Positions 1-48,071 of a stretch of 64,000 bases of DNA are shown piece after piece. Both the position numbers and the translations under genes were made by a program. The DNA is from Candidatus Omnitrophota bacterium (GTDB lineage Bacteria > Omnitrophota > Gorgyraeia > Zapsychrales > Fredricksoniimonadaceae), in NCBI GenBank assembly GCA_028865345.1, contig JAGWKL010000002.1, positions 665 through 64,664 of the forward strand, given 5' to 3'. The notes beneath the pieces were generated by a model. It was not told the origin of the DNA and searched no databases. It saw only the letters and a list, made by a program, of their open reading frames with translations. Each line of letters begins with the position of its first letter. Position 1 is the stretch's first letter.

Positions 1-48
1 TTTTCTATCAAAATAAGTGAAAACAAAAACCCACTAATTAAAAATGTC

Positions 49-1359
49 TTGCTGATATCCTTCGCCTTAGATCTTCTTATTTTGCCATTCACTCCAACAA
101 AATTTTACATACCCAGCATGGCGCCTAAATTGGTATTTCAATTTTGGCCTGTGACTGGCCCCCTCTTATATTATTCAATGATCCAATTTGTCATTGCGGT
201 CCCCTTAGCTTTCTTTTTACTTCAGACTAAATTAAACAAATCCACAGGAACATCAAAAAGAAATTTTCAAATTCTTTTCTATTCTTTATTAATAGGGTTC
301 TTAGGAGGAACCACCGATTACTTTCCTTGTATTAATATACCAATAGCACCGTATGGAAATGCCTTAGTGCCGATTTTTATTTTTGGATTTTTGTATTTAA
401 TTTTCAAACATCAAATAATGGATATTCACATAAGCCTTTCAAGAAGTTTTGTTTACACCATTCTTATATTCTTAATCACTCTTCTATATTTTTTAGTAAC
501 ATATCTAATAAACACCTATCTGAATTTAATTGGTTATCAATCATTTATTTTCTCACTTTTAGCTGCTTCAATTACTGCATTGACTTTTATCCCGCTAAAA
601 GATATTCTTCAGATGTTTATAGATAAACATTTTCTTAAAAAATCTATTAAAGAAATAGAAGAAGAAAATGAATTACTTAAGCAAGAAGTGATGCAATCTG
701 ATCGTATGAAATCCATCGCGATCTTAGCCAGCGGAATGGCTCATGAAATAAAAAACCCTCTGACACCCATTAAAACCTTCAGCGAGCTTCTCCCCTCAAA
801 GCTCGAAGACAAAGAATTCTTGCTCAAATTTTCAAAAATTATAGGCAAAGAAGTTGACCGGATCGATGGATTAGTTCAAGAGCTGCTTAGCTTTGCCAAA
901 CCAAGCGTGCCCCAATTGAAATCAACTAATATCTGCCAACTCATCGAACAAACCCTGGAATTCCTGAATAATGAAATCATCCGCCACAAAATCGTCCTAA
1001 ATACTTTTTTTGAAAACAAAATCATACTTATTGATCTTGACCCTCACCTAATAAAACAAGCTCTTTTAAACATTTTCCTAAACGCCATTGATGCCATGCC
1101 AAATGGCGGCACTCTTAGCGTCATTGCGAGGAACGAAACTACAAAGCAATCTTTTATCATCGAAATCTCCGACACCGGTTGCGGGATTTCACCTAAGGAT
1201 CTGTCTCACATTTTTGATCCGTTCTTCACAAAGAAAGACCACGGCACAGGTTTAGGCCTGTCCATAACCGAGGGGATAATCAAGAATCACAATGGAAAAA
1301 TATTAGTGAAAAGCGAATTGAATAAGGGGACTTCTTTTAGGATTGAACTTCCGGTTTAA
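49..1359 (+). CDS. Sensor histidine kinase with a multi-pass membrane N-terminus, HisKA and HATPase_c
   Basis: H-box MAHEIKNPLTPI, N-box LLNIFLNAIDAM, G-boxes DTGCGI and GTGLGLS. Several hydrophobic helices occupy the first ~190 aa. The frame is open back to base 1 with no stop, so the true start may lie left of the window. Confidence 0.85.
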   Translation: MLISFALDLLILPFTPTKFYIPSMAPKLVFQFWPVTGPLLYYSMIQFVIAVPLAFFLLQTKLNKSTGTSKRNFQILFYSLLIGFLGGTTDYFPCINIPIAPYGNALVPIFIFGFLYLIFKHQIMDIHISLSRSFVYTILIFLITLLYFLVTYLINTYLNLIGYQSFIFSLLAASITALTFIPLKDILQMFIDKHFLKKSIKEIEEENELLKQEVMQSDRMKSIAILASGMAHEIKNPLTPIKTFSELLPSKLEDKEFLLKFSKIIGKEVDRIDGLVQELLSFAKPSVPQLKSTNICQLIEQTLEFLNNEIIRHKIVLNTFFENKIILIDLDPHLIKQALLNIFLNAIDAMPNGGTLSVIARNETTKQSFIIEISDTGCGISPKDLSHIFDPFFTKKDHGTGLGLSITEGIIKNHNGKILVKSELNKGTSFRIELPV

Positions 1360-2543
1360 ATCTCGCCTTTATTATAAAGCTCGACCAAGGCCTCCACGGG
1401 CTTGTGATGGAATTGCTTATTAACACACTGTTGTATTTCTATAATGGCCTCGTCCTTGCTTAATCCTTTACGGTAAGGCCTGTCCGTTGTCATGGCATCA
1501 AAGGTATCGGCCACGGCAATGATCGCTGCGATCATGGGGATATCTTCCCCTTTCAACCCATCCGGATAGCCTTGCCCGTCGTAGCGTTCATGATGGTATT
1601 GAACACCATTTATGACCTCTTCAAAACCGGTCAATGAAGAAAGGATCTCGGCCCCGCGGGTGGTATGGCTTTTCATGATCTCATATTCTTCGGCCGTTAA
1701 TTTGTCCTGCTTGGATAAAATGGCCTCAGGTACGCCGATCTTTCCGATATCATGCAAAAGCCCGGAAATATACAAGTTTTCGAAAAACTTATAAGGAAAA
1801 ACATAAGACTTGGCCGCCTCCATTCGGCGGCCTATGGCCAAAGCATATTTGGTGACACGTTCCGTATGACCGTGTGTGTAGATGTCCTTGGCTTCAATGG
1901 CTGACCCTAAGGCAATGGTTGTCTGGATAAACAAATTGCGGTTACGTTCCGCTTCTTTCTTAAGACCCTCAAATAATTGGGCATTGCGGATGGCAATGGC
2001 CACATCGGAGGCCAAAGCTGAAAAGAAATTCAATTCTTCCTGATCGAAACGGGCACCGTCCTGCTTTTCTCCGAGCAACAAAATAGCCATCAGCATATGC
2101 TGGTAATAAGCAGGCACGCAGGCCACGGCATTGAGCTTGGGTAATTGTTCACTGACATTGTGCAAAAGCTGCTTGGTGCCGTTGCCGTTGGAAATGACGC
2201 TTTCTTTCCAGAGAAGCTTATTAATGTCTTCAGCGACGATGGCATTGCGGTTTTCAAAGATATATTTATATTCTTTCTGGATAAAAAGTTTTATCAAAGG
2301 ATTGGTCTTGTTGAAGCGGATCAAGCCCTCGGGAATGCGTTCGCCTATACCTCCTCGGGAAATAGACAAAACATAGGAATCCCTGTCCGGATTATAAAGG
2401 ATCATGCCGGCATGCTGGATACGGACTTTTTGGACAAGGGAGCGGACAATGAGCTTGATCAATAAGCGGTGGTCATGGATCAAAACCATGCCTTTAGAGG
2501 CGGATTCCAATTCTCGCTTATAATCAATCTTGGTGGGAGGCAT
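1356..2543 (-). CDS. GAF-domain HD-GYP protein (putative c-di-GMP phosphodiesterase)
   Basis: C-terminal HD-GYP signatures HDIGKIGVP and HHERYDGQGYPDGL, with an N-terminal GAF-like region. It is adjacent to the REC gene with a 1-nt gap. Confidence 0.85.
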   Translation of the reverse strand: MPPTKIDYKRELESASKGMVLIHDHRLLIKLIVRSLVQKVRIQHAGMILYNPDRDSYVLSISRGGIGERIPEGLIRFNKTNPLIKLFIQKEYKYIFENRNAIVAEDINKLLWKESVISNGNGTKQLLHNVSEQLPKLNAVACVPAYYQHMLMAILLLGEKQDGARFDQEELNFFSALASDVAIAIRNAQLFEGLKKEAERNRNLFIQTTIALGSAIEAKDIYTHGHTERVTKYALAIGRRMEAAKSYVFPYKFFENLYISGLLHDIGKIGVPEAILSKQDKLTAEEYEIMKSHTTRGAEILSSLTGFEEVINGVQYHHERYDGQGYPDGLKGEDIPMIAAIIAVADTFDAMTTDRPYRKGLSKDEAIIEIQQCVNKQFHHKPVEALVELYNKGEI

Positions 2544-2926: not shown

Positions 2927-5086
2927 CTACCCTATAGCAATAGGCAAACGCAATTTCATCTGCGTGCCGTGCATATACTTGGAAACCATCTCCACCCTAC
3001 CGCCGTGATTTTCTTCGATTATTTTTCTGATCACATAAAGCCCCAAACCGGTGCCTTTTTTGCTGGAAAGCTTTGTTGTAAAGAACGGAGTAAACATTTT
3101 ACTCATGTCTTCATCTTTAACACCGACACCATTGTCTTCAAAAATGATCTCTACATACCCATCTTCTTTAAAAACCCGCACAATCAAGGTCGGCTGATAA
3201 TCCGGCTCACGTCTCTCGTCTTTTCTTTGCATCATCGCATCATAACCATTATCAATGAGATTAAAAAACACTTCCTGCACCTGCGTAAAATTAGCTTTTA
3301 TTTTTGGAATGGTCGCAACATCATATTCACGGATTATTTTCAACTGCTGCGTTTTGATCTTAAACTGTGTCATTTCCAAGGCGGCTTTAAATACCGCGTC
3401 TACATCAACAGCCGCAAAGCCGGTCTCTCCCTTGCGGGTATATTTCAAAAGCCCCTGAACGATTTCTCCGCCCTGCGTAACATTTTCCTGGACGCGTACA
3501 AGCGCACGCTCCAATTCCGCCATAACTTCTTTTGACTTTTCTGAGGACAACGCCTCTTTTTGATTCAAATGGATCGTATCCAAAGCATCACCGGCAATAA
3601 AACCCAACGCATGAAAACGGTTGTTGATCTGATGCGACAGCCCGTCAGCCATGGTGCCGATGGTGGCCATCTTTTCAGCCTTAAACAACTGCTCTTGGGT
3701 CAATTTCATGTCTTCATAAAACTTAGCATTCTCGATGGCAAGGGCGGTTTGATTGGCCAAAATTCCAAAAACAGAAATATCGTCCTGGGTATAAATTTTC
3801 CCGGATTCTTTTTTGCCCATTACTATGATGGCTATAATGCTACCTTCAATAAAAATGGGCGCAATCAATTCACCATCGAGAGAAGAAATGTCCTCTTCTA
3901 CTTGCCCTAATGTTAAACCCTTAAAGTCTTGGGACTTCTGCTTAAATTCTTCATAAATAACCAAATTCTTATCATCTAACAAATATCGTATTAAAGAAGA
4001 GTTTTCCGAAATTTTATCAAGAAACTGTTTATGACCAGACTTCCTTTTTATTGCACCCAGAAAATACTGTTTCTTTTCTTTATCATGAATATAAATCGAT
4101 GCGTGTTCAATTTGTATGGCATGTGTCAACACATATACAATCATATTTAACAACTTTTTTAAATCCTTTATTTTACCCATTCCAGCAGATGCTTGGCGTA
4201 AAGTAGCCTGATAACGACGCTGTTCTTGTAACAATTTGTCTTCGGCTTGTTTTTGTACATAAAGATAAATAAATGGGCCTAATGTTGCAAATAATGCCAT
4301 TAAGCCTATGGGCAACAACCAAGCCCCTTTCCCCAAAAACTTAAAACCTATCCATACAGGAATACCTAAAACAAAAGAATAAACAGCAATAAAAATAGCT
4401 GTATTGGATATAGCCACTCGTATATCCATAAGCCTATAACGAACAATGGCATAAGCAGAAATTGTTAAAGATATCAAAATCGCCACTACACCTAGTGGAT
4501 AAAAAGAGAAACCATAATTAACAAAAAAATCAGTAGACGCCAAACAATAAACAAAAAATGCGATTAACAAGAATGTAAGTTGACTTCCCAAAACTCCTTG
4601 CCATCTAATAAGAAAGCCTTTTTGTAAAAGCTGAAAAAAACACATTCCCATAAGCGTAAAAAGATATAATAAGAATAAAGGGTGTAAAATTCCAGCCTTT
4701 GGATAGTACCCCCAATAAAAATGATTTACTCCATTAATTAACAAATTGGTGGGAAGTAATATTATAAAAAAAAGACTCACAAAATAAGCCTTTTTAGTAA
4801 GACGCCAAAAATTTCGCGAATCAACAAAAGCTGTAAAATAATGTAAATAAGTAGCAGGTATCAACACTATTCCAATATGCCCAATCCTAGCAATATTCTT
4901 TGCTAATTCTAAATTGTTAGTATTGAATAAAAAGAACCAACTAAATTGCCACCAAAATGTAACAACTGAATTAAATAAAAAACCTAGGCGGATAGACCGA
5001 TTTCCCTTGCTTTTCAAATAAACAAAGGAACCAAGCAATAAGAAGAGAATAGCAGAAATTAAAGGAAGGAGAGAATATCTACTCAA
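2927..5086 (-). CDS. Sensor histidine kinase: multi-TM N-terminus, GAF-like region, HisKA, HATPase_c
   Basis: About 280 aa of hydrophobic helices, then a GAF-like segment (IYIHDKEKKQYFL ... IVMGKK). H-box LSHQINNRFHAL, N-box FFNLIDNGYDAM, G-box GTGLGLYV. Confidence 0.85.
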   Translation of the reverse strand: MSRYSLLPLISAILFLLLGSFVYLKSKGNRSIRLGFLFNSVVTFWWQFSWFFLFNTNNLELAKNIARIGHIGIVLIPATYLHYFTAFVDSRNFWRLTKKAYFVSLFFIILLPTNLLINGVNHFYWGYYPKAGILHPLFLLYLFTLMGMCFFQLLQKGFLIRWQGVLGSQLTFLLIAFFVYCLASTDFFVNYGFSFYPLGVVAILISLTISAYAIVRYRLMDIRVAISNTAIFIAVYSFVLGIPVWIGFKFLGKGAWLLPIGLMALFATLGPFIYLYVQKQAEDKLLQEQRRYQATLRQASAGMGKIKDLKKLLNMIVYVLTHAIQIEHASIYIHDKEKKQYFLGAIKRKSGHKQFLDKISENSSLIRYLLDDKNLVIYEEFKQKSQDFKGLTLGQVEEDISSLDGELIAPIFIEGSIIAIIVMGKKESGKIYTQDDISVFGILANQTALAIENAKFYEDMKLTQEQLFKAEKMATIGTMADGLSHQINNRFHALGFIAGDALDTIHLNQKEALSSEKSKEVMAELERALVRVQENVTQGGEIVQGLLKYTRKGETGFAAVDVDAVFKAALEMTQFKIKTQQLKIIREYDVATIPKIKANFTQVQEVFFNLIDNGYDAMMQRKDERREPDYQPTLIVRVFKEDGYVEIIFEDNGVGVKDEDMSKMFTPFFTTKLSSKKGTGLGLYVIRKIIEENHGGRVEMVSKYMHGTQMKLRLPIAIG

Positions 5087-5492
5087 AGTAAATATGATTA
5101 GTAATAACCTTTTTGATCCCTTCAGGGAGCCGAAGAATTGACCCCTTATTATTCACAAAAATAAGTGTTTCGCCTCCAATACTAACAACTTCACCTGATT
5201 GTTTATTAAGATAAATAAACATCATTTCGAAACTGGATTTCTTTATATTACGGTTTTGTACTCTTAGTAAAATACGATCAAACGCATGAATCTGTTTTTT
5301 ATATTCATTCCAGGCATGTTTTGTGACCAAAGTTATATTATTAAATATTTCTTGATAATTTTCTACAGTAGTAAAATAGAGCTCTCTGCATATCCCCTGC
5401 CACTCGAAATATCGAGAAAAATAGACAGTCCCGTACATATTAATATCTTTTAAAGTAACAATAAATTCATACTCAAATGCGTCCTGATTCAT
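5079..5492 (-). CDS. Hotdog-fold (4HBT/YbgC-like) acyl thioesterase
   Basis: At 137 aa the size and the N-terminal pattern (VTLKDINMYGTVYFSRYFEW) are typical of 4HBT thioesterases. It overlaps the ACP gene by 4 nt and the HK gene by 8 nt. Confidence 0.65.
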   Translation of the reverse strand: MNQDAFEYEFIVTLKDINMYGTVYFSRYFEWQGICRELYFTTVENYQEIFNNITLVTKHAWNEYKKQIHAFDRILLRVQNRNIKKSSFEMMFIYLNKQSGEVVSIGGETLIFVNNKGSILRLPEGIKKVITNHIYFE

Positions 5493-5719
5493 AGATTCTT
5501 TGAATTAAGATAATTAATTACATCTTTAACTGTTTTTAATCTTCCAATTTCTTCTTCGCCTATTTTTATATTAAATTTATCTTCAATATTTAATACTAAT
5601 TCAACAATATCCAATGAATCTGCTCCTAAATCTTCAAATTTTGAGCAGTCCTTTAAATCTTCCCTTTTAACTCCTAGAGTGTCAGCTATTATAGTCTTTA
5701 CTATATCTATATTAGTCAT
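5489..5719 (-). CDS. Acyl carrier protein (stand-alone)
   Basis: 76 aa with the phosphopantetheine attachment motif GADSLDIVELV. Confidence 0.85.
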   Translation of the reverse strand: MTNIDIVKTIIADTLGVKREDLKDCSKFEDLGADSLDIVELVLNIEDKFNIKIGEEEIGRLKTVKDVINYLNSKNL

Positions 5720-5739
5720 ACCCCTCTAAAATAATATTT

Positions 5740-7014
5740 TCAGAACTTATACGTCAAACTCACCAACCCGATATTTATAAACTCACTATATTTCCCATCC
5801 ACCGTACCGGCGCTGCCGGCCGTCGACTTGGCAACTGAGTTGATAATGTTCCGTGTATCATAAAAAAGGATTGAATAGGCCACATCAAGTGTCAGGCGTT
5901 TAGTGATATCATAACCAAAACCTGTGGTATAACCGTTGGAATTGCTGTCCGGTATCCTCGGGTTAAAGGTGGCATCTGGGATAACCATTTCATGATGGTA
6001 ATAACCTAACCTTACACGAAAACGATCGTTGACATTATATTGGGTACCGATGGATTCAGACCATGCGGAATGCCAATCTGCGGGGGTGGGAGCAGCGAAA
6101 CCTAAAGTATTAAGGGTTGCACTGCCGTTGATGTTGATCGTCTGGTATTTCGTGCTGGACCAATCCACCCATGCCACATCAAGGTTAACCGTCCATTTCT
6201 TTGTAGGTTTGAAGCTATATCCTGCCACCACACTTTGAGGTAAAACCGACTTCTCGCTAACATTAGACACATAGGATGAAAAACCATAAGCAGTGGGATT
6301 AGCCCCGTTAATGCTCATTTTCCCCCGGTAATTGTGATTGATACGGCTGCGGTAGATCAAACCGATTTGATTTTTGTCATTGATTTTATACAGGGTCGCT
6401 ATACGGTATCCCCAAGCATCATCACCACCTTTAAGCTCGGCAATACCGATTGATCCGCCGTAACCATTAAGCGCAAAACTTTCATCCGCCTTTGATTCAT
6501 CGTTGTCCACGCTTGCGGCTATGGACCATTGCGGGGTCACTTGATACGAAAACGCCAGGGAATTATCAATGTCTGTAATGCTGGCCTGGGTTGTTGCATA
6601 CTCCAAAGGACTGTTAGGCCCCCAATTAGTGGCAGTGCCCCAATAAGAACCTGAACCAAAACCAATGCTTAATTTATTATTGACAGGCAAAACAGCGTAA
6701 AAATTGGGAATATTGAATTCATTGTTTTGCATGTGCACAGTATTTCCGTTTGGCTGTACCATATGGCCTCTGGGCGCAATAAGAGCATCTCCTACGGAAA
6801 TTTCCGGCCTGGTCATTTGATTCATACCGGCTGGGTTGTAGTACATGGCCGCAGGCGTATCCGCTTCACCGACAAAAGCCGAACCCATACCCATTGCACC
6901 AGCGTCGGGAACCTCTATATTATAGGCCCCGGAACCTGTAGCAAACGCACTCTGTCCCCAGGAAGTCATCAAAAACGCACAAAAAACGATGATGAATATA
7001 CGGAATAATGACAT
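5740..7014 (-). CDS. FadL/OmpP1/TodX-family outer-membrane hydrophobic-compound channel
   Basis: Signal peptide ending in SAFA. N-terminal hatch-like segment GAMGMGSAFVGEADTPAAMYYNPAGM. Alternating beta-strand pattern and a C-terminal YKF. Confidence 0.75.
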   Translation of the reverse strand: MSLFRIFIIVFCAFLMTSWGQSAFATGSGAYNIEVPDAGAMGMGSAFVGEADTPAAMYYNPAGMNQMTRPEISVGDALIAPRGHMVQPNGNTVHMQNNEFNIPNFYAVLPVNNKLSIGFGSGSYWGTATNWGPNSPLEYATTQASITDIDNSLAFSYQVTPQWSIAASVDNDESKADESFALNGYGGSIGIAELKGGDDAWGYRIATLYKINDKNQIGLIYRSRINHNYRGKMSINGANPTAYGFSSYVSNVSEKSVLPQSVVAGYSFKPTKKWTVNLDVAWVDWSSTKYQTININGSATLNTLGFAAPTPADWHSAWSESIGTQYNVNDRFRVRLGYYHHEMVIPDATFNPRIPDSNSNGYTTGFGYDITKRLTLDVAYSILFYDTRNIINSVAKSTAGSAGTVDGKYSEFINIGLVSLTYKF

Positions 7015-35915: not shown

Positions 35916-38321
35916 CTATATGCGCGCTTTGGCTGAAATACGCATTTCATAAAAGGAGCGGATCAAAAAGAACAGGGCAACGCCAAAAAAGACAACGGCA
36001 AGAAAAATGTCAAGCCCCCGGCCCAAACCAATGGCAATTTCAATGGCCAGCAACCCAAACAAGGTCGTAAATTTGATGATCGGATTGATGGCCACCGATG
36101 ATGTGTCTTTAAAAGGATCCCCCACCGTGTCCCCGACCACCGTTGCCGCATGTAATTCTGTGCCTTTTTCCTGATACGTCACTTCTACCAACTTTTTAGC
36201 ATTGTCCCACGCCCCGCCGGCGTTGGCCATGAAAATGGCTTGAAAAAGGCCGAAAACGGCAATGGAGATCAGATAGCCTATGAAGAAATACGGCTCCAGA
36301 CAGGCGAAAGCAAGGGTCATAAAAAGCACGGCCACGAAAATATTGATCATCCCCTTTTGGGCGAACATCGTACAAATTTCTACGACCCTTGTACTGTCCT
36401 GTTTGGAGGATCTGTCTGTTCCTTCCAACTTGATATGTTCCTTGATATACTGCACAGTATGATAAGCCCCTGTGGTCACCGCCTGAATGGAGGCGCCGGA
36501 AAACCAGAAGATCATGCCCCCGCCGCTTAAAAGCCCGAGCAACAAAGGCGGATAAAGCACCGACATGTTCTCCATATGCACTGTGAGGCCGCGGGTTAAT
36601 ATCATAATGATAGAAAAAATCATGGTGGTGGCGCCAACCACGGCTGTCCCGATCAACACCGGCTTTGAAGTGGCCTTAAAGGTGTTCCCCGCCCCGTCAT
36701 TGGCTTCCAGATGATGTTTGGCAAGCTCGAAATTCGGCGTAAAACCGCTGGTCTTTGCGATTTCTTCCTTAATATTCGGAATGGCCTCGACAAGAGAGAG
36801 TTCATAAATCGACTGCGCGTTGTCGGAAACAGGCCCATAAGAATCAACGGCAATGGTGACTGCCCCCATCCCTAAAAATCCGAACGCCACCAGGCCAAAG
36901 GCAAACACCGCGGGTGCTATCATGATGGCATCCAACCCCATTAAACTGACAAAATAGCCTAAAGCCATCAGGACCACGATCACCAGCCCCATCCAATACG
37001 CGCTGTAATTCCCCGCCACCAGCCCGGAAAGGATATTCAGCGAGGTGCCACCCTTTTTGGAGCATTCGTAAATGTTCTTCACAAAATCCGAATTCATGGA
37101 TGTAAAGACCTTGATCCCCTCCGGAATGACGGCACCGGCCAAGGTGCCGCAGGTGATGATGGTGGCCAGCTTCCACCAAAACGTACCGTCCCCCAAATTC
37201 GGGATAAGGACATAGGAGGCCACATAGGTCAGGATGATCGAAAAAATCGAGGTGATCCATACCAGGGAGGTCAAGGGATCTTCAAAGTTCATTTCTTTAG
37301 CATTGGCATAGCGCCTTTTGGCAAAAAAATGGTTGATTTCATAAGAAAAACCGCTGGCGATCAGCATGATCAAACGCATGGAAAAGATCCAAACCAGGAG
37401 CTCTGCCTGGACCTGCGGATTTTTGACGGCCAAGAGAATAAAAGCGATGAGCGCCACTCCGGTCACCCCGTAGGTCTCGAAACCGTCCGCCGTGGGCCCA
37501 ACCGAGTCCCCCGCATTGTCCCCCACGCAATCGGCGATGACCCCCGGATTGCGCGCGTCGTCCTCCTTGATATTAAAAACGATCTTCATGAGATCAGACC
37601 CGATGTCCGCAATTTTTGTAAAAATGCCGCCTGCGATCCTCAGAACGGAGGCGCCCAACGATTCACCGATGGCAAAACCGATAAAACATGGGCCGGCATA
37701 GTTGGGATTAATAAAAAGAAGAATGCATAACATGACAAAAAGTTCAATGCTGATAAGGAGCATGCCGATGCTCATGCCCGCCTGCAAAGGAATGGAATAG
37801 ACCGGAAATGGTTTGCCTTCCAGGCTCGCAAAGGCGCAACGCGAATTCGCCAGGGTGTTGATCCTCATGCCAAACCAGGCGACACTATAGCTTCCGGCGA
37901 TACCGATGAGACTGCAGACTAAAATAAGAGCGACCCTGCCGGCGTCAAAATGGCGCAGCCAGCCGAAATAGGCCACCATGACACCCCCGATCAGGACCTC
38001 CAAAACCAGCAGGAACTTCCCCTGGGCAATAAGATATGCTTTACAGGTCGAATAAATGAGCTCGGAGATCTCTTTCATGCTTTGATGCACCGGCATCTTT
38101 TTCAATTGCCCGAACTGATAGATACCAAAAAATGCCCCGAAAGCGCAGACAATAAGACCTAACATCAATGCGGTGTGGCCGTTTAAGTGAAAAATAAGAG
38201 GAACCGAGGATAAATCAGGCACTATCAGGTCTGATTCGCCCGCCCAAGCTCCCGGAAGACCCAGAAAAAATGCCATGAACGTTAAAAGTCCAAGTCTATA
38301 AAACTTCTGACGACGGCTCAT
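35916..38321 (-). CDS. hppA: Membrane-bound ion-translocating pyrophosphatase, copy 1 (K+-independent-type signature)
   Basis: KEDDARNPGVIADCVGDNAGDSVGPTAD, GDTVGDPFKDTS, and GNTFKATSKP, which has Lys at the A/K discriminator position. About 16 TM helices, 801 aa. Confidence 0.9.
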   Translation of the reverse strand: MSRRQKFYRLGLLTFMAFFLGLPGAWAGESDLIVPDLSSVPLIFHLNGHTALMLGLIVCAFGAFFGIYQFGQLKKMPVHQSMKEISELIYSTCKAYLIAQGKFLLVLEVLIGGVMVAYFGWLRHFDAGRVALILVCSLIGIAGSYSVAWFGMRINTLANSRCAFASLEGKPFPVYSIPLQAGMSIGMLLISIELFVMLCILLFINPNYAGPCFIGFAIGESLGASVLRIAGGIFTKIADIGSDLMKIVFNIKEDDARNPGVIADCVGDNAGDSVGPTADGFETYGVTGVALIAFILLAVKNPQVQAELLVWIFSMRLIMLIASGFSYEINHFFAKRRYANAKEMNFEDPLTSLVWITSIFSIILTYVASYVLIPNLGDGTFWWKLATIITCGTLAGAVIPEGIKVFTSMNSDFVKNIYECSKKGGTSLNILSGLVAGNYSAYWMGLVIVVLMALGYFVSLMGLDAIMIAPAVFAFGLVAFGFLGMGAVTIAVDSYGPVSDNAQSIYELSLVEAIPNIKEEIAKTSGFTPNFELAKHHLEANDGAGNTFKATSKPVLIGTAVVGATTMIFSIIMILTRGLTVHMENMSVLYPPLLLGLLSGGGMIFWFSGASIQAVTTGAYHTVQYIKEHIKLEGTDRSSKQDSTRVVEICTMFAQKGMINIFVAVLFMTLAFACLEPYFFIGYLISIAVFGLFQAIFMANAGGAWDNAKKLVEVTYQEKGTELHAATVVGDTVGDPFKDTSSVAINPIIKFTTLFGLLAIEIAIGLGRGLDIFLAVVFFGVALFFLIRSFYEMRISAKARI

Positions 38322-41576: not shown

Positions 41577-43973
41577 TTAAGCTGAAATACGCATCTCGTA
41601 AAAAGACCGGACCAAAAAGAACACGGCAACTGTAAAAAAAACAGCCGCCAAAAATATATCCAGCCCCCGGCTTAACCCGATGGCGATCTCAATGGCCAGT
41701 AAGCCGAACAATGTCGTGAATTTGATGATCGGATTGATGGCCACAGATGAAGTGTCTTTAAACGGGTCCCCCACCGTGTCTCCCACCACCGTCGCCGCAT
41801 GCAATTCAGTGCCTCTCTCTTGGTATGTGACTTCCACGAGCTTCTTGGCATTGTCCCATGCTCCGCCGGCATTGGCCATGAAAATGGCCTGAAAGAACCC
41901 GAAGGCGGCAATGGAGATCAAATACCCTATAAAAAAATACGGCTCCAGGCAGGCAAAGGCGAGAGTGGTAAAAAGGACGGTCACGAAAATATTGATCATG
42001 CCTTTTTGGGCGAATACCGTGCAAATTTCCACCACCTTTTTGCTGTCCTTGGTGGAAGCCCTGCCTTCCTGGTCCAGCTTTATGTTTTCTTTGATGTATT
42101 GCACGGTGTGGTAGGCGCCGGTGGTCACCGCCTGGATGGAAGCCCCGGAAAACCAATAGATCATGCCGCCCCCGCTCAAGAGCCCAAGCAGGAATGGAGG
42201 ATAAAGTACGGATAAATTTTCCATATGGACCGTAAGGCCGCGGGTCAATATCATGATGATGGAAAAGATCATGGTGGTGGCCCCCACCACGGCCGTTCCG
42301 ATCAAAACAGGCTTGGCTGTGGCTTTAAAAGTGTTGCCTGCGCCGTCATTGGATTCCAGATGGTGCTTGGCAAGCTCAAAGTCAGGCGTAAAGCCATGGT
42401 CCCTGATGATCTCCTCTTTGATATGAGGAAGGGTCTCGATGAGAGAAAGCTCATAAATGGATTGTGCATTGTCGGAAACCGGCCCATAGGAATCAACGGC
42501 AATGGTGACCGGCCCCATGCCCAAAAATCCAAACGCCACCAGGCCAAAAGCAAACACCGCCGGTGCGATCATAATGGCATTCAGGCCAAGAGTACTGATA
42601 AAAGAAGCAACGGCCATCAGGACCACAATGACCACCCCCATCCAGTGGGCGCTGTAATTCCCCGCCACCAAGCCTGATAGGATATTAAGAGAAGCCCCTC
42701 CTTTTTTGGAGCTTTGATAAATGTTCTTCACAAAATCTGAATTCAAGGAAGTAAACACCTTGGTCCCCTCCGGTATGACCGCTCCTGCCATGGTGCCGCA
42801 GCTGATGATGGCGGCGAGTTTCCACCAGTAGGTGCCATCACCCAAAGATCGTATGAGGGCAAAAGAAGCCAGGAAAACCAGGGCGATCGATACGATGGAG
42901 GTGATCCACACCAGGGATGTCAACGGCGCTTCGAAATCCATGGTGTGAGTTTTTAAATAGCGCCTTTTGGCAAAAAAATTATTGATCTCGTAGGAAAGGC
43001 CGCTGGCGATGATCATGATGGTGCCGATGAAAAATATCCACACCAACAGCCTGGCCTGAACCAGGGGATTTTTAACAGCCAAAAGAATAAAGGAAATAAG
43101 CGCCACCCCGGTCACGCCGTAGGTCTCAAAAGCATCCGCCGTAGGACCCACCGAGTCGCCGGCATTGTCTCCCACGCAATCGGCGACCACCCCGGGATTA
43201 CGCGCGTCGTCTTCCTTGATGTTAAAAGCGATCTTCATGAGATCGGCGCCGATGTCCGCAATTTTGGTAAAGATCCCTCCGGCGACCCTCAGCACAGACG
43301 CGCCCAACGATTCACCAATGGCAAAACCGATAAAGCAAGGGCCGGAATAATCGGGGTTGATAAAAAGGATGATGCTTAACATGACGAAAAGTTCCGTGCT
43401 TATCAACAACATGCCGATGCTCATACCCGCCTGCAGGGGAATGGAATAAACGGGAAAGGGTTTGCCTGCAAGGCTTGCGAAAGCGCACCGGGCATTGGCC
43501 TTGCCGTTGATCCTCATGCCGAACCATGCCACGGCATAGCTTCCGGCGATGCCGATCAGGCTGCAGACTAAAATAAGAACGACTTTGTCGGCGTCAAAAT
43601 GCCGCAGCCATCCGAAATAGGCCACCATGACAGCACCGATCAAAACTTCCAGGGCAAGCAAAAACTTTCCCTGGGCGATGAGATAGGTTTTGCAGGTCGT
43701 ATAAATGAGCCGGGAGATATCTTCCATGCTTTTATGCACGGGCATTTTCTTCAAACGTGCGTACTGGTACATTCCGAAAAAGATGCCGAAAATGCATACC
43801 AAAAGCCCCAAGATGAGGGTCCTGCGGCCGTCCAAACCAAAAATGCCGGGTACAGCGGACAAATCCGGAACCTTCAAATCCGCCTCACCGGCCCATGCCG
43901 GCGAAACACCTGAAAAGAATGCCGCAAAAATTACAAACCAGGATTTACAGACCCCCGTCCACCGATTCTTCAT
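41577..43973 (-). CDS. hppA: Membrane-bound ion-translocating pyrophosphatase, copy 2 (paralogue of 35916-38321)
   Basis: It has the same motifs as copy 1 and is co-linear along its whole length. A good SD (AAGGGAG) precedes ATG 43973. Confidence 0.9.
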   Translation of the reverse strand: MKNRWTGVCKSWFVIFAAFFSGVSPAWAGEADLKVPDLSAVPGIFGLDGRRTLILGLLVCIFGIFFGMYQYARLKKMPVHKSMEDISRLIYTTCKTYLIAQGKFLLALEVLIGAVMVAYFGWLRHFDADKVVLILVCSLIGIAGSYAVAWFGMRINGKANARCAFASLAGKPFPVYSIPLQAGMSIGMLLISTELFVMLSIILFINPDYSGPCFIGFAIGESLGASVLRVAGGIFTKIADIGADLMKIAFNIKEDDARNPGVVADCVGDNAGDSVGPTADAFETYGVTGVALISFILLAVKNPLVQARLLVWIFFIGTIMIIASGLSYEINNFFAKRRYLKTHTMDFEAPLTSLVWITSIVSIALVFLASFALIRSLGDGTYWWKLAAIISCGTMAGAVIPEGTKVFTSLNSDFVKNIYQSSKKGGASLNILSGLVAGNYSAHWMGVVIVVLMAVASFISTLGLNAIMIAPAVFAFGLVAFGFLGMGPVTIAVDSYGPVSDNAQSIYELSLIETLPHIKEEIIRDHGFTPDFELAKHHLESNDGAGNTFKATAKPVLIGTAVVGATTMIFSIIMILTRGLTVHMENLSVLYPPFLLGLLSGGGMIYWFSGASIQAVTTGAYHTVQYIKENIKLDQEGRASTKDSKKVVEICTVFAQKGMINIFVTVLFTTLAFACLEPYFFIGYLISIAAFGFFQAIFMANAGGAWDNAKKLVEVTYQERGTELHAATVVGDTVGDPFKDTSSVAINPIIKFTTLFGLLAIEIAIGLSRGLDIFLAAVFFTVAVFFLVRSFYEMRISA

Positions 43974-43996
43974 AACTCCCTTTCTTTATTTAAGAA

Positions 43997-44081
43997 CGGA
44001 GAGGGTGAGATTCGAACTCACGGCCCCTTGCGAGGCAACGGTTTTCAAGACCGCCGCATTCGACCACTCTGCCACCTCTCC
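43997..44081 (-). tRNA. tRNA-Ser (anticodon UGA)
   Basis: Manual cloverleaf. Acceptor GGAGAGG/CCTCTCC with discriminator G. Anticodon stem GCGGT/ACCGT with loop CTTGAAA. Long variable arm GCCTC-GCAA-GGGGC. T arm GTGAG-TTCGAAT-CTCAC. CCA is not encoded. Confidence 0.92.
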
Positions 44082-44157
44082 AAAATTTAAAGAAATAATT
44101 TGGGCGTATACATAAAAAAGGATATATTAACAAAAGGTCCAAATCTTAACAAGAAAT

Positions 44158-45480
44158 ATGAAAACGTTCAAACCTTTTCCCTTACCTCTCCATGTGTCGG
44201 GCGTTTTCCTTTTCTCATTGATCTACTGGATTTTTCTGTCTCTGAAAAGTATTTCTGCCGACCTCATTGGTTATAAAACCTTGGGGTCTATCATTTACCA
44301 CCAAGGGTTGGTCGGATACGCAGCCACCGGGCTGCAACGTGAACCTCTCTATCCCCTGTTATGTTCCTTGGCCATGTATGTAGAACACTTAAGCGGTGTT
44401 AATTTCACTCATATCATGGCAGCTTTAAGCATCATCATGTTGATGATCTCTCAAATTCTAATATATGCCATTTTAAGAAAACTGAACATCCGCCCTTTGA
44501 TCTGTTCTTTAGTGCTGCTTTATTGGGCCGTATCGCCATGCATCACAGAATCCGCCTTTCACATATTATTATTTTGCGAAATCGTTACCTATCCCCTCAT
44601 TCTTGCCGTAATTATTTTCTCTTACCTCGGATGGGAATCTGTAAAAGAAAACGACAAAGGGGAGGCCTGCGCCTATGGAGCCCTTACAGGCCTTTTATTT
44701 GCATTGCTGACCCTCGTGAAAGCCGCATTTGAATGTATTTGCCCTGCCTATCTTATATTCTTTTTCCTGGGAGCCTTGCATAAAAATAAATTTTCCGCTT
44801 CTCTGATCTGTTTTCTGGCTGCTGCAGGCTTATTATTTTATTCTCCTATCGTTGGCTACAAATCTTTAAATAAAATGTATAATGGGCATTTTGCCGTTAC
44901 TAACAGGGGCGACTGGGCCTTTTATGGAGTTGCGGCCCACCGTGTAAGACCTCTCAAGAACTACCTCATCAATCTTGATTTCGTAATAGGCAACTGCGAG
45001 GCCTTTTTTCAATCATCAGCATGCAACTCTGTAAGTTCCGGTATTTCGGATAGTTTAGGGACACAAAAGGCGGCAGAATTGGCCGCCAAGCACATCCCGC
45101 CGCAAGCCGTCTCAAATACCCTTCTGCAGTTGTCCATCCAGAAAATCCTGTCCCATCCGTTTCAATATATTTTGTTATCAGCAACCGAAGGACTCAAAGC
45201 ATTATTTTGGGAAAACAACGCCGGTATCATTCCACTGCGGTTCATTATGCCTATCATTACATTCTTTGCGATCATTTATTGCTGTTTCAACTTTGCCCAA
45301 GCCCCCATTTTGATAAAAAACATTATGGCTATGATTTTCTTATTTGTTTTCTTTTATTCATTTTTTGACACTTTGGGCCGCTATTTTCTTCCGATTTCTT
45401 CCCTATACCTTATCAGCATCGGTTACTGCATGAATTCATTATGCAACTTTCTATCCCCTTCTAAAAACACTATAGTTTAA
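44158..45480 (+). CDS. Polytopic membrane protein, possibly a GT39/GT83-like (PMT/ArnT-type) glycosyltransferase
   Basis: About 11-12 TM helices in 440 aa, with a first-loop segment LQREPLYPLL reminiscent of the PMT_2 family. The GC content is markedly low. Confidence 0.4.
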   Translation: MKTFKPFPLPLHVSGVFLFSLIYWIFLSLKSISADLIGYKTLGSIIYHQGLVGYAATGLQREPLYPLLCSLAMYVEHLSGVNFTHIMAALSIIMLMISQILIYAILRKLNIRPLICSLVLLYWAVSPCITESAFHILLFCEIVTYPLILAVIIFSYLGWESVKENDKGEACAYGALTGLLFALLTLVKAAFECICPAYLIFFFLGALHKNKFSASLICFLAAAGLLFYSPIVGYKSLNKMYNGHFAVTNRGDWAFYGVAAHRVRPLKNYLINLDFVIGNCEAFFQSSACNSVSSGISDSLGTQKAAELAAKHIPPQAVSNTLLQLSIQKILSHPFQYILLSATEGLKALFWENNAGIIPLRFIMPIITFFAIIYCCFNFAQAPILIKNIMAMIFLFVFFYSFFDTLGRYFLPISSLYLISIGYCMNSLCNFLSPSKNTIV

Positions 45481-45508: not shown

Positions 45509-46144
45509 TTAGAACCTGCTTAAGGGGATCAAATCCGCAAAGTAAATGCAACGGGCGATGTCCGTGAGTTTCAATAATTGGGCAAGCCGGGCCAGGCCCA
45601 CTCCCTGGGACAATAATCGCCGGGCTAACACATAACGGGGCGTTTCTTTCGGCGGACGCGACGGAGGCCAGGGCAATAAACGCAGATGCAAACAGGGATT
45701 GTCATTGATAAAACCCAATGTAATGCCGAATTCCAGGACATCTCTTATCAAAAGCAGTGTCAGATTAAGGACCCTTGGGCGTAGTGCTCCGGCCAAACAA
45801 CGCTTGTATGATTCCAAAATGCCGGGTGATATTTGGGCCAGCCGGACGACCTGAGGGAAATCTGATTTAAGAAAACCGCTGAAATGTTCGATGGCGGCGG
45901 CGAAACGTCCGACCGTTCTGGAACTCTGCTGTTTCTGTATCTCGTCGATAAAACGCCCGAAAAAATCCGCCAGGTCGATATGACGGTCGATCGTCAGGGC
46001 CTCGCCGTGGGCGATTTTCTCTTCAACCTGGAATAATAGCCTTTGGGCTTGCTCCAAATCACCGCCGGCCATTTGGGAATAAAGCAGGCCACGGGCATGG
46101 AACTCGATATAGTAAACACCGTTGACCTTACGGATTTGACCCAT
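45509..46144 (-). CDS. Integrase-derived DNA-binding protein (arm-binding-like and SAM-like core-binding domains, no catalytic domain)
   Basis: N-terminus IRKVNGVYYIEF. Core-binding-like segment AAAIEHFSGFLK...ISPGILESYKRCL...NLTLLLIRDVLEF. At 211 aa it lacks the R..HxxR..Y catalytic residues. Confidence 0.45.
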   Translation of the reverse strand: MGQIRKVNGVYYIEFHARGLLYSQMAGGDLEQAQRLLFQVEEKIAHGEALTIDRHIDLADFFGRFIDEIQKQQSSRTVGRFAAAIEHFSGFLKSDFPQVVRLAQISPGILESYKRCLAGALRPRVLNLTLLLIRDVLEFGITLGFINDNPCLHLRLLPWPPSRPPKETPRYVLARRLLSQGVGLARLAQLLKLTDIARCIYFADLIPLSRF

Positions 46145-46446
46145 TAAGAAGTGAAGAAGATGATGTATAGAAGAGCGCCTATAACGGCAAAAGACAATAA
46201 ATAAAAATCGTTGAAATAAAAAAAGTCGCGCACGCGTTCGCCGAAACTGTATTCCGGAAGAGTATTCTCGGAAACGACCTGCCCCGTCGAACGGATATTG
46301 AGGACTTCATTGCGTTTAAGGCGCAGAAATTGATCGGCGATCTTGTAGGCCTGCAAACTGCCGCTTTCGATCAAATCCATGACCTTTTTTTCCGATACGG
46401 CCAGGATCTGCGCCGTCTCACGGACAGTAATGTATTGGCTGCTCAT
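46144..46446 (-). CDS. Membrane-anchored excisionase-type HTH protein
   Basis: N-terminal HTH_17-like YITVRETAQILAVSEKKVMDLIESGSLQAYK. C-terminal TM helix LLSFAVIGALLYIIFF. Confidence 0.6.
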   Translation of the reverse strand: MSSQYITVRETAQILAVSEKKVMDLIESGSLQAYKIADQFLRLKRNEVLNIRSTGQVVSENTLPEYSFGERVRDFFYFNDFYLLSFAVIGALLYIIFFTS

Positions 46447-46961
46447 GATTTAACCCTGCTGACCAAGGCCCATTGTTCGATTTGGGAGCGCTCGAATTTC
46501 CAGCCGTCCCCTTCTTTGATCGCAGGGATCTTGCCGGTGGTGGCCAGTTCCACAATGGCCGGAATCTCAATTTCCAGATATTGTGCCAGGTCATCGATGC
46601 TCAAAATATCCTCCAGCATGTGGCAATGTCCCTGGAAAATAGCCCCTTCGACGATGTTCAATTTAGGCGTTGAAATATCCCCGTGCACAACAGCCGAGGG
46701 CATAAGAACAAGCATCTTTTTGGCGACAATATTGCCCTTGATCTTTCCGGCAACGATGACATTTTCGCCGATGATGTTGGCTTCCACCTGAGAGGTCGGC
46801 CCGATGGTCAGGGTGCCGCGGGCATCCAGCTTGCCCGTGTAGCGGCCCTGGATCTTTAAATTCACGGGGTCGCTGAAAGTCAAGGTCCCTTCCATTTGGG
46901 CATTGATCTCAATGACTTTTTCTTCAGCGGCGTCTTTATGCTCTTTGCGGTTAAAGGCCAT
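46443..46961 (-). CDS. Bactofilin fused to a C-terminal excisionase-type HTH domain
   Basis: Bactofilin beta-helix repeats (GTLTFSDPVNLKIQGRYTGKL...VIVAGKIKGNIVA...VVHGDISTPKLNIVEGAIFQG), followed by LSIDDLAQYLEIEIPAIVELATTGKIPAIKEGDGWKFERSQIEQW. Confidence 0.75.
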   Translation of the reverse strand: MAFNRKEHKDAAEEKVIEINAQMEGTLTFSDPVNLKIQGRYTGKLDARGTLTIGPTSQVEANIIGENVIVAGKIKGNIVAKKMLVLMPSAVVHGDISTPKLNIVEGAIFQGHCHMLEDILSIDDLAQYLEIEIPAIVELATTGKIPAIKEGDGWKFERSQIEQWALVSRVKS

Positions 46962-47048
46962 AGAAGGCTCCTCCTTGTAAAATTAAAAATAGATACTATT
47001 GATTCACATTAATTATATCAAAACTTATCCTGGGGCAAAAAATAAAAC

Positions 47049-48071
47049 TTAATTGTTATTATGCCAGTGGTACGCCAATCCGGCGATCATAGCCGCGTTA
47101 TCCAGGCACAACACCATGGGCGGGAAAAACACATCCACCCCCTGGACACCGGCGCGGGCCTGCACAAGGCGCCTTAAGGCGGAATTGGCCGCCACCCCGC
47201 CGCCGACCAAAAGAGTATTGACCTTGAACTTACGGCAGGCCTGCAGGGATTTTTCCGCTAAAACAGCTACTACGCTTTCCTGAAAGGCATGTGCCACCTG
47301 GGCGGCGGAATAATCCGGCTTGAGACCATTTCTCTGGACATAATAAAGCACCGCCGTCTTGGTGCCGCTGAAAGAAAAATCCCAGCCTCCTTTCATGGGC
47401 GCTGGGGGAAACTTGATCCCTGAAGAGGCCGCCTCCCTTGAATTACAGGGAACCGCCCCCTTTACGCCGGCCGCCAAACGGTCGATCGCAGGGCCGCCGG
47501 GATAACCCAAACCCAGAATACGCGCCACCTTATCAAAGGCTTCCCCGGCCGCATCATCGCGGGTTGTGCCCAGCAACTTAAACTTCCTGAAATTCTCGAT
47601 ATAAAAAAGGCTGGTATGCCCGCCGGAAACAACCAGTCCCACGGCCGGCAGACGGTTTTGAGGGCAAGCCGCCTTTTCACCGGAAAGCTGCACATAATTC
47701 GCATATAGATGGGCCTTGATGTGGTCGATCTCCACAAGAGGTTTGTTTAAAGCATGGCTTAAACCCCTGGCGAAACAAAGACCAACCAAAAGAGAACCAA
47801 TGAGCCCCGGAGCGCGGGTGACGGCAATGGCATCAATATCTTCAAACGTCATCCGGGCGCTCTTCAAACTCTCAGCCACGACCCCGTCAATAAATTCGAT
47901 CTGGCGGCGGGAGGCGATTTCCGGGATGATGCCGCCGTAAGCTTCATGCTCCTTAAGGCTGGTGGCCACGACGTTGGAATGCACCCGTACACCGTCCTGC
48001 ACGACAGCCGCCGCCGTCTCATCACAGGAAGTTTCAATACCTAAAATAGTCAACGGGATAGACGTCTTCAT
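47049..48071 (-). CDS. tsaD: tRNA N6-adenosine threonylcarbamoyltransferase
   Basis: ILGIETSCDETAAAVV and the GGVAAN motif. 340 aa. Confidence 0.92.
   Translation of the reverse strand: MKTSIPLTILGIETSCDETAAAVVQDGVRVHSNVVATSLKEHEAYGGIIPEIASRRQIEFIDGVVAESLKSARMTFEDIDAIAVTRAPGLIGSLLVGLCFARGLSHALNKPLVEIDHIKAHLYANYVQLSGEKAACPQNRLPAVGLVVSGGHTSLFYIENFRKFKLLGTTRDDAAGEAFDKVARILGLGYPGGPAIDRLAAGVKGAVPCNSREAASSGIKFPPAPMKGGWDFSFSGTKTAVLYYVQRNGLKPDYSAAQVAHAFQESVVAVLAEKSLQACRKFKVNTLLVGGGVAANSALRRLVQARAGVQGVDVFFPPMVLCLDNAAMIAGLAYHWHNNN

Follow-up and report, generated by a model that had tools for sequence, protein, structure and literature searches.

A bactofilin–winged-helix fusion and a putatively tail-anchored excisionase-like protein form a gene pair conserved across the phylum Omnitrophota

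Introduction

Bactofilins are widespread scaffold proteins, few of their clients are known, and the established links between them and DNA (PadC–ParB and BacR) are only indirect. Can a bactofilin be linked to DNA more closely? This question is raised by a locus on a stretch of 64,000 nucleotides from a Candidatus Omnitrophota bacterium (GenBank assembly GCA_028865345.1, contig JAGWKL010000002.1, positions 665 to 64,664; hereafter the window). Its three overlapping genes are designated g1, g2, and g3 (Table 1). The product of g1 combines a bactofilin with an excisionase-type winged helix, that of g2 is a small excisionase-like winged-helix protein with a putative C-terminal membrane anchor, and that of g3 is a derivative of a tyrosine recombinase. 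A first-pass annotation of the sequence had regarded the three as one device, in which a bactofilin binds DNA directly and is paired with a membrane tether, and had noted that nothing of the kind seemed to be described. The literature searched for bactofilins in connection with Omnitrophota, excisionase, or helix-turn-helix (HTH) indeed contains no description of this module. Bactofilin systems as such are known; new are the folded winged helix fused to the bactofilin, the obligate Xis-like partner with its putative tail anchor, and the conservation of both throughout a phylum.

Throughout a whole uncultivated phylum, the pair formed by g1 and g2 is conserved, and more strongly so than its neighbor, the essential tsaD. 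It thus constitutes a compact two-protein system in which to ask how a nucleotide-independent polymer may act at the membrane to organize either DNA or a regulator.

Results and Discussion

Gene order and conservation

As first annotated, the three open reading frames lie on the minus strand and overlap, g1 and g2 by 4 nt (ATGA), g2 and g3 by 1 nt (TAATG). A strong ribosome-binding site (AAGGAGG) precedes g1, and none precedes g2 or g3, which, together with the gene overlaps, fits translational coupling.

To place the locus in its phylum, one genome per GTDB species was scanned. The g1 fusion was found in at least 122 genomes, and 80 were kept as loci; their titles name Omnitrophota, a mere “bacterium” in a few cases, or “uncultured Planctomycetales” where the assembly came from a third party. 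In every one of the 80 loci, g2 lies directly downstream of g1, and in 37 the two genes share 1 or 4 nt. Upstream of g1, tsaD is present in 75 loci, the others ending at contig edges; further upstream follow ctp (67/80) and a gene for a YibQ-type deacetylase (55/80). By tblastn and a family hidden Markov model (HMM), g3 was found in eight loci, in all of which g1 is at least 79% identical, and it is missing even from some close relatives (e.g., L002 and L005). One g3 homolog with 56% identity occurs again in the order tsaD-g1-g2-g3; another, with 50% identity, lies in an unrelated neighborhood behind a membrane protein and away from any g1-g2 pair. A distant fusion (L087 and L088) shares 46% identity with g1 and has unrelated flanks, without tsaD and with greA downstream. 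This fusion, too, is followed by a gene for a 94-residue protein with an HTH_17 domain, the motif LDFWRYNGFYL, and a hydrophobic tail, that is, the architecture of g2. Because the association holds in 80 of 80 loci for g2 versus 8 of 80 for g3, and because the pair is kept in L087 and L088, g1 and g2 are an obligate pair conserved across Omnitrophota, and g3 is a lineage-specific accessory. The trio initially taken for the functional unit is thereby reduced to a pair, the more so as g3 has a homolog elsewhere without it.

All three are real genes, because each has hundreds of length-conserved homologs and because the proportion of nonsynonymous differences (pN) is far below that of synonymous ones (pS). 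Both were determined for the window genes against seven orthologous loci, with pS (0.5–0.77) being near saturation. As pN was 0.08–0.11 for g1 and 0.08–0.14 for g2, which is below the 0.13–0.18 of tsaD, the pair is more constrained than its essential neighbor. For g3, pN was 0.21–0.28 and pS 0.53–0.76, and purifying selection is weaker but clear.

The fusion of bactofilin and HTH in g1 is genuine. A total of 679 homologs was retrieved; among the best 120 listed, nearly all comprise ∼172 residues and both domains, at 67–86% identity. An exhaustive HMMER search of 1.8 billion cluster representatives added ∼20 clusters (clustered at 50% identity) in which the architecture is complete, 168–192 residues long and down to 29% identical, some of them labeled “PVC group bacterium”. 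With this number of homologs, their near-constant length, and their presence in the genomes of at least 122 species, a frameshift or assembly artifact, which had been considered at first, is ruled out.

Two of the distant loci have further contents. In L087, the distant g1-g2 pair is preceded by genes for proteins with Hint/intein-type domains (PT-HINT, Vint; 181–1724, minus strand). The most distant fusion (27% identity; L086, 290–5567) is clustered with a Volactin-type actin homolog (PF25216), three unknown proteins of ∼210 residues, and a 465-residue ParA/MinD-like ATPase with a match to AMPK1_CBM. A search of this cluster for g2- or g3-like genes found none, and it may represent a different cytoskeletal or positioning cassette.

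Table 1. Features of the locus and their positions in the window.
Feature	Position	Strand	Description or basis
g1	46443..46961	minus	172 residues; bactofilin fused to excisionase-type winged helix
g1 N-terminal MAFNRKEH	46938..46961	minus	putative bactofilin membrane-targeting sequence
g1 bactofilin β-helix, residues 16–113	46623..46916	minus	Pfam PF04519, AF2, Foldseek
g1 acidic C-terminal winged helix, residues 120–165	46467..46604	minus	excisionase/MerR-type fold; HTH_17, TIGR01764, AF2
g2	46144..46446	minus	100 residues; excisionase-like winged-helix protein, putatively tail-anchored
g2 winged helix, residues 5–49	46300..46434	minus	Xis and PHROG matches
g2 juxtamembrane motif ERVRDFFYFNDFY, residues 70–82	46201..46239	minus	family-conserved
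g2 hydrophobic tail, residues 83–100	46147..46200	minus	putative tail-anchor transmembrane helix; hydropathy
g3	45509..46144	minus	211 residues; predicted catalytically dead tyrosine-recombinase derivative with internal deletion
g3 arm-type (AP2-like) N-domain, residues 1–45	46010..46144	minus	model, integrase alignment
g3 SAM-like core-binding domain, residues 57–150	45695..45976	minus	PF13102 (sub-threshold), 3nrw superposition
g3 three-helix relic of catalytic-domain C-terminus, residues 166–211	45512..45649	minus	aligns to integrase LRHT-to-VYAHL segment
tsaD-g1 intergenic region	46962..47048	minus	likely promoter and ribosome-binding site
tsaD	47049..48071	minus	Pfam TsaD, E = 1e-81; conserved upstream neighbor
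tRNA-Ser(tga)	43996..44082	minus	ARAGORN; downstream landmark, integration hotspot

The bactofilin fusion g1

The domains assigned at first to all three proteins were confirmed. In g1, the bactofilin domain is recognized by Pfam (PF04519, residues 16–113) with E = 1.9e-24 and 86.2 bits (gathering score 27.9), and the HTH_17 domain (residues 120–165) with E = 1.7e-7 and 31.8 bits (cutoff 27); the NCBIfam model TIGR01764 (“excisionase family”) is passed with 29.8 bits (cutoff 28.8). An AF2 model (pLDDT 80) comprises a disordered N-terminus (residues 1–13), a β-helix (16–115), and a winged helix (122–169) of the order helix-helix-hairpin-helix. By Foldseek, the β-helix matches BacA (2n3d; TMt 0.84, root mean square deviation [rmsd] 2.3 Å) and TtBac (6rib), and the winged helix matches the RdfS excisionase, BldC, Pukovnik Xis, RacA, and pSK1 Par. 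F109, in the last winding of the β-helix and part of the motif EGAxFQG, is invariant. Polymerization of g1 independent of nucleotides would be in keeping with its bactofilin domain.

Membrane-targeting sequences of bactofilins have the consensus MFSKKKK (BacA, MFSKQAKS; Proteus mirabilis, MFSRKTE), with Phe and Lys being critical (PMC12448750). The N-terminus of g1, MAFNRKE, resembles these apart from an extra Ala at position 2, and 16 diverse homologs all share M1, F3, and R5. Judging from this resemblance, g1 probably binds the membrane by itself, and g2 would not be needed merely as its tether. The separate tether envisaged at first is thus likely superfluous.

The winged helix of g1 is highly conserved yet acidic, with a net charge of −6 (family mean −5.1, range −7 to −1). 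Its recognition helix, EIPAIVELATTG, is devoid of basic residues, and the mean charge there is −2.3; in the wing region, a few basic residues (K144 and R158) are invariant. A sequence search of the PDB with the winged helix gave no match even at E ≤ 10. Compared with the aligned segment of Xis, the usual Ser, Thr, Lys, and Arg appear, in our reading, to be replaced by Glu, Ile, Pro, and Ala. Because the domain is acidic and lacks the usual DNA-contacting residues, canonical DNA binding by g1 is doubtful and a role as adaptor seems more likely. The notion of a bactofilin binding DNA directly has consequently lost ground.

The putatively tail-anchored protein g2

The HTH_17 domain of g2 (residues 5–49) was detected with E = 4.9e-7 and 30.3 bits, and TIGR01764 scored 33.8 bits, above the cutoff of 28.8. 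The 564 homologs are 99–101 residues long. The HTH matches Pukovnik Xis (4j2n; E = 0.002) and a PHROG excisionase family (E = 8e-7), and the wing carries a net charge of +3 in the window protein (family mean +4.1). The basic wing and the match to Xis suggest that g2 binds DNA. A juxtamembrane motif follows, with the consensus ErxxDFfYfNDFY in 79 loci, which has its counterpart in the motif of the L087 partner. The last 18 residues are strongly hydrophobic, in line with the C-terminal transmembrane helix initially predicted, which is best called putative; the Kyte-Doolittle maximum over 19 residues is 2.27, and length and position of the tail are conserved. That the HTH domains of g1 and g2 are recent paralogs was considered and rejected, as BLAST found no in-register similarity.

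The recombinase derivative g3

In g3, Pfam found Phage_int_SAM_5 (PF13102, residues 57–150; E = 4.6e-4) with 20.9 bits, just short of the gathering score (22.3), and did not detect the catalytic domain PF00589. The 168 homologs are ∼215 residues long and 47–68% identical. The AF2 model (pLDDT 87) has an N-domain of three strands and a helix; a SAM-like domain of four helices and a linker come next, and three short helices form the C-terminus. The top Foldseek match is full-length λ Int (1z1b; E = 2.4e-4), the SAM-like domain superimposes on 3nrw with an rmsd of 1.3 Å over 98 columns, and AP2 and P4-type arm-domain structures appear lower in the list. Residues 5–158 align with residues 4–159 of an intact tyrosine integrase from a related locus (L003; hhalign probability 98.4%), and a weaker second alignment joins the last ∼50 residues of g3 to the integrases of L003 and L009. 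In a global alignment with both, ∼125 residues are deleted from g3, including Arg-I (GMR), the Lys-β hairpin, and His-II. Among the remaining active-site positions, the equivalent of Arg-II (R170) is kept by all of 120 homologs, GH in box II has become KL, and the nucleophilic tyrosine is matched by Y in 66 homologs, by F in 47, and by W in 6 (by F in the window protein). Since most catalytic residues are deleted or replaced and the nucleophile position is variable, g3, judged by its sequence, is not a recombinase and represents a retained derivative that probably binds DNA.

The lack of a catalytic domain noted at first is borne out, and nowhere in the window is there a separate catalytic piece that matches the g3 profile. 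A split pseudogene was therefore dismissed: the g3 HMM found no second piece in the window, the length of ∼215 residues is kept, and the gene is under purifying selection. g3 is a clear case of a tyrosine recombinase kept without its catalytic core; with it, two DNA-binding folds of mobile elements, Xis and Int, would have been domesticated into a core cellular module. In L081 (5486–6645), the g3 homolog with 50% identity that lies remote from g1-g2 is preceded by a gene for a 169-residue polytopic membrane protein without a family match, and likewise on the short contig L082.

A possible membrane scaffold and its alternatives

What might the pair do? Our preferred reading, held tentatively, is that of a bactofilin scaffold at the membrane to which g2 docks via the winged helix of g1, with g2 tethering DNA and g3 adding further binding in one lineage. 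g1 would polymerize via its β-helix on the cytoplasmic face of the membrane, anchored by MAFNRKE, and the polymer would array the folded C-terminal winged helices along the filament. g2 would reside in the same membrane by means of its C-terminal helix and display a basic, Xis-like, DNA-binding winged helix. Xis, BldC, and RdfS-type proteins oligomerize by head-to-tail contacts between winged helices, and the acidic winged helix of g1 may be mainly a docking module for g2, perhaps via such an interface. A bactofilin patch could then cluster g2 together with its DNA and, without requiring nucleotides, tether a chromosomal region to the membrane or position it. In one sub-lineage, including the present genome, a recombinase would have lost its catalytic core and been kept as g3, translationally coupled to g2; there it would probably add arm-type and core-type DNA binding or bending, as in an Int–Xis complex, without recombination. 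In favor of this reading we count the fusion with its domains, the constant adjacency of g1 and g2 and its persistence in L087 and L088, the low pN of both genes, the invariant N-terminal motif, the contrast between a basic, Xis-like wing in g2 and an acidic winged helix in g1, the superposition of the latter on filament-forming excisionases and on the chromosome anchor RacA, and the integrase-derived g3 under purifying selection. A more ambitious form, which we consider rather doubtful, has the filament template winged helices, its own and those of g2, into a membrane nucleoprotein anchor for a defined chromosomal region, phylum-wide and unrelated to ParABS, with g3 captured in one lineage as a sequence-specific DNA-bending subunit. 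If true, this would give Omnitrophota a phylum-wide chromosome-organizing system independent of ParABS.

Several observations weigh against the scaffold. Polymerization, membrane binding, DNA binding by g2, the contact between g1 and g2, and the cellular role are all inferred from sequence and models. The recognition helix of g2 is slightly acidic (−1). The structural matches of the g1 winged helix also include the protein-binding MerR-fold proteins CbpM (3ucs) and DafA (9dvi), and as the MerR/Xis fold thus occurs in purely protein-binding roles too, DNA may not be involved. An alignment of the tsaD-g1 spacer with that of relatives revealed no target site or conserved operator, and neither ParA, ParB, nor other segregation genes were found among the window neighbors checked; g1 to g3 also contain no ParA or ParB domain. 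Finally, g3 is absent from most lineages and has a homolog that stands alone elsewhere, so that any role it has in the module is optional.

The nearest competitor is a switch resembling that of BacR, in which g2 would be a membrane-held transcription factor that the g1 filament binds or releases, or titrates via a decoy winged helix, so that gene expression would follow the condition of the bactofilin or of the membrane, without any positioning of the chromosome. There is precedent in Bacillus subtilis, where BacR, an HTH protein encoded with bactofilins, is bound near its HTH and its DNA binding is blocked (PMC13649987). An HTH protein adjoins the bactofilin here as well, the acidic winged helix of g1 could mimic or compete, and relatives have a promoter of their own upstream of g1. 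Yet neither g1 nor g2 matches DUF4004 at E ≤ 1; g2, putatively anchored for good by its tail, carries no sensor domain and no mechanism of release is evident; the operon is not preceded by a conserved operator; and conservation above that of tsaD would be unusual for a local autoregulator. We regard such a switch as unlikely. Ranking just below it, and likewise unlikely, is a scaffold for the envelope or for morphogenesis that involves no DNA at all: both winged helices would be protein adaptors, and the g1 filament and g2 would position enzymes of the cell wall or of division, in the manner of other bactofilins. Most clients known for bactofilins are proteins of the membrane or cell wall (PMC12448750), and ctp and the YibQ-type polysaccharide deacetylase gene upstream are envelope-related by the names of their Pfam families. 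The acidic g1 winged helix is in keeping with this, as are the protein-binding roles of the MerR/Xis fold in CbpM and DafA. However, tsaD sits between these genes and g1, the pair is kept in L087 without the block of ctp, deacetylase, and tsaD, and the HTH of g2, with its basic wing, scores above the excisionase cutoff and has a genuine Xis as a match; that an integrase-derived gene joined the operon also points to DNA.

The arrangement proposed in the first-pass annotation, in which DNA is bound by the winged helix of g1, membrane tethering falls to g2, and the trio is obligate, has become improbable. It can draw on the thresholds passed by g1 for HTH_17 and TIGR01764, on structural neighbors of its winged helix that bind DNA as filaments, and on the invariant basic residues K144 and R158 in the wing region; against these stand the charge of the winged helix (−5 to −6) with its acidic recognition helix and lack of a PDB sequence match, the candidate membrane-targeting sequence of g1 itself, and the absence of g3 from 72 of the 80 loci. 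Least probable by far is the remnant of a mobile element, namely, an Xis/Int cassette decaying beside a tRNA site, to which the bactofilin fusion would be incidental. The HTH domains are of the excisionase type, g3 is integrase-derived, and a tRNA gene lies just downstream. Across the phylum, tRNA genes follow g1-g2 (tRNA-Met in distant loci, tRNA-Ser in close ones), in relatives right behind g2 or g3, and in L003 (10848–11909) and L009 (10244–11329) intact tyrosine integrases (PF00589, E = 3e-32) are encoded immediately 3′ of tRNA-Ser(tga), a few kilobases downstream of g1-g2-g3. For g1-g2, the idea is largely refuted by the phylum-wide occurrence in a housekeeping context and a pN below that of tsaD; for g3, frame and length are kept over 47–68% identity, with pN far below pS, and repeats, att sites, and phage or defense genes were not found. 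A mobile-element history is plausible as the origin of g3 only. Integration hotspots at tRNA genes may explain the position of g3; however, the tRNA gene has g3 on its 5′ side, but the intact integrases of L003 and L009 on its 3′ side.

Comparison with known systems

The scaffold that we favor has a close parallel in the BacNOP–PadC–ParAB system of Myxococcus xanthus, in which a bactofilin scaffold has a DNA-binding adaptor encoded directly downstream, the contact is made via a C-terminal extension of the bactofilin, and the result is DNA positioning (PMC5703909); the same is proposed here for g1 and g2. In contrast to that system, the adaptor would contain an excisionase-type winged helix instead of the ParB-like nuclease domain of PadC and is putatively tail-anchored, the bactofilin extension is a folded winged helix whereas that of BacP is disordered, and no ParA or ParB was found at the locus. 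BacR (YhbD, DUF4004) of B. subtilis is likewise an HTH protein encoded in a bactofilin operon; BacE and BacF attach to it close to the HTH, keep it at the membrane, and modulate how it binds DNA (PMC13649987). BacR, however, is soluble and encoded upstream of the bactofilins, whereas g2 is a putatively tail-anchored HTH_17 protein of only 100 residues without a DUF4004 match, and in g1 an HTH is covalently fused to the bactofilin itself.

In the RacA–DivIVA anchor of B. subtilis (PDB 5i44), a winged helix of the MerR/Xis fold on a membrane-associated polymer tethers DNA. There, the scaffold is DivIVA and the linker a coiled coil, with neither bactofilin nor tail anchor, and the winged helix of RacA is a proven DNA binder, unlike the acidic one of g1. 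Excisionase-type proteins line up cooperatively on DNA, head to tail, and are partnered with the arm-binding domains of Int. Pukovnik Xis (4j2n), RdfS (8dgl), and BldC (6ama) share the small winged-helix fold with g1 and g2, but the latter lack a mobile element, att sites, and an active integrase, are fused to a polymer (g1) or a putative membrane anchor (g2), and reside in a phylum-conserved chromosomal housekeeping context. With λ Int (1z1b), g3 has in common an arm-type N-domain, a SAM-like domain, and a C-terminal relic with the Arg-II and Tyr region; it differs by the loss of Arg-I, Lys-β, and His-II, the replacement of His/Trp-III, and Y, F, or W at the position of the nucleophile.

Genomic surroundings

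The AT-rich spacer between tsaD and g1 had been put forward as a candidate target site. It looks like an ordinary promoter region without a conserved operator: in relatives, a clear TTGAC-17-TATAA is present or the spacer is only ∼25 nt long, and the window spacer contains TTGATA-17-TAGTAT (9/12), which is not above chance. In L003, L008, L009, and L011, GC-rich hairpins (e.g., CCCCGCCTGG...CCAAGCAGCGGGG) lie within the ∼60 nt upstream of g1, between the conserved promoter and the ribosome-binding site, and could be regulatory stems of the 5′-untranslated region; they are absent from the window.

The window neighbors checked are housekeeping genes (gatA, gatB, ctp, the deacetylase gene, tsaD, ksgA, pdxA, mfd, secDF, trpE, and two genes for H+-pyrophosphatases). 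Repeats, att sites, and phage or defense genes did not turn up, PADLOC and PHROGs returning matches only at the level of the HTH domain. An origin from defense or phage genes was rejected accordingly, because NCBIfam MAD1 (42.9 bits, cutoff 80), PADLOC mad1 (E = 0.001), and the PHROGs excisionase families match at the domain level only, and a link to MamR and magnetosomes (23 bits versus a cutoff of 100) reflects HTH similarity alone. With a housekeeping context in 75–80 of the 80 loci, a dead g3, and no phage or defense context, the pair does not present itself as a functional excisionase, i.e., a recombination directionality factor.

Two paralogous membrane H+-pyrophosphatases are encoded less than 6 kb apart on the minus strand (35916–38321, 801 residues; 41577–43973, 798 residues), the second adjoining tRNA-Ser. 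Between g3 and tRNA-Ser(tga), and convergent with them, a plus-strand gene of lower GC content (44158–45480; GC 0.42) encodes a 440-residue multi-pass membrane protein without a Pfam or NCBIfam match; a homolog with 54% identity is encoded in L003 (9291–10619), on the strand of the operon. Window positions 1–1000 and 4001–6000 have a GC content of 0.32–0.33, compared with a background of ∼0.50, and may represent foreign or intergenic DNA.

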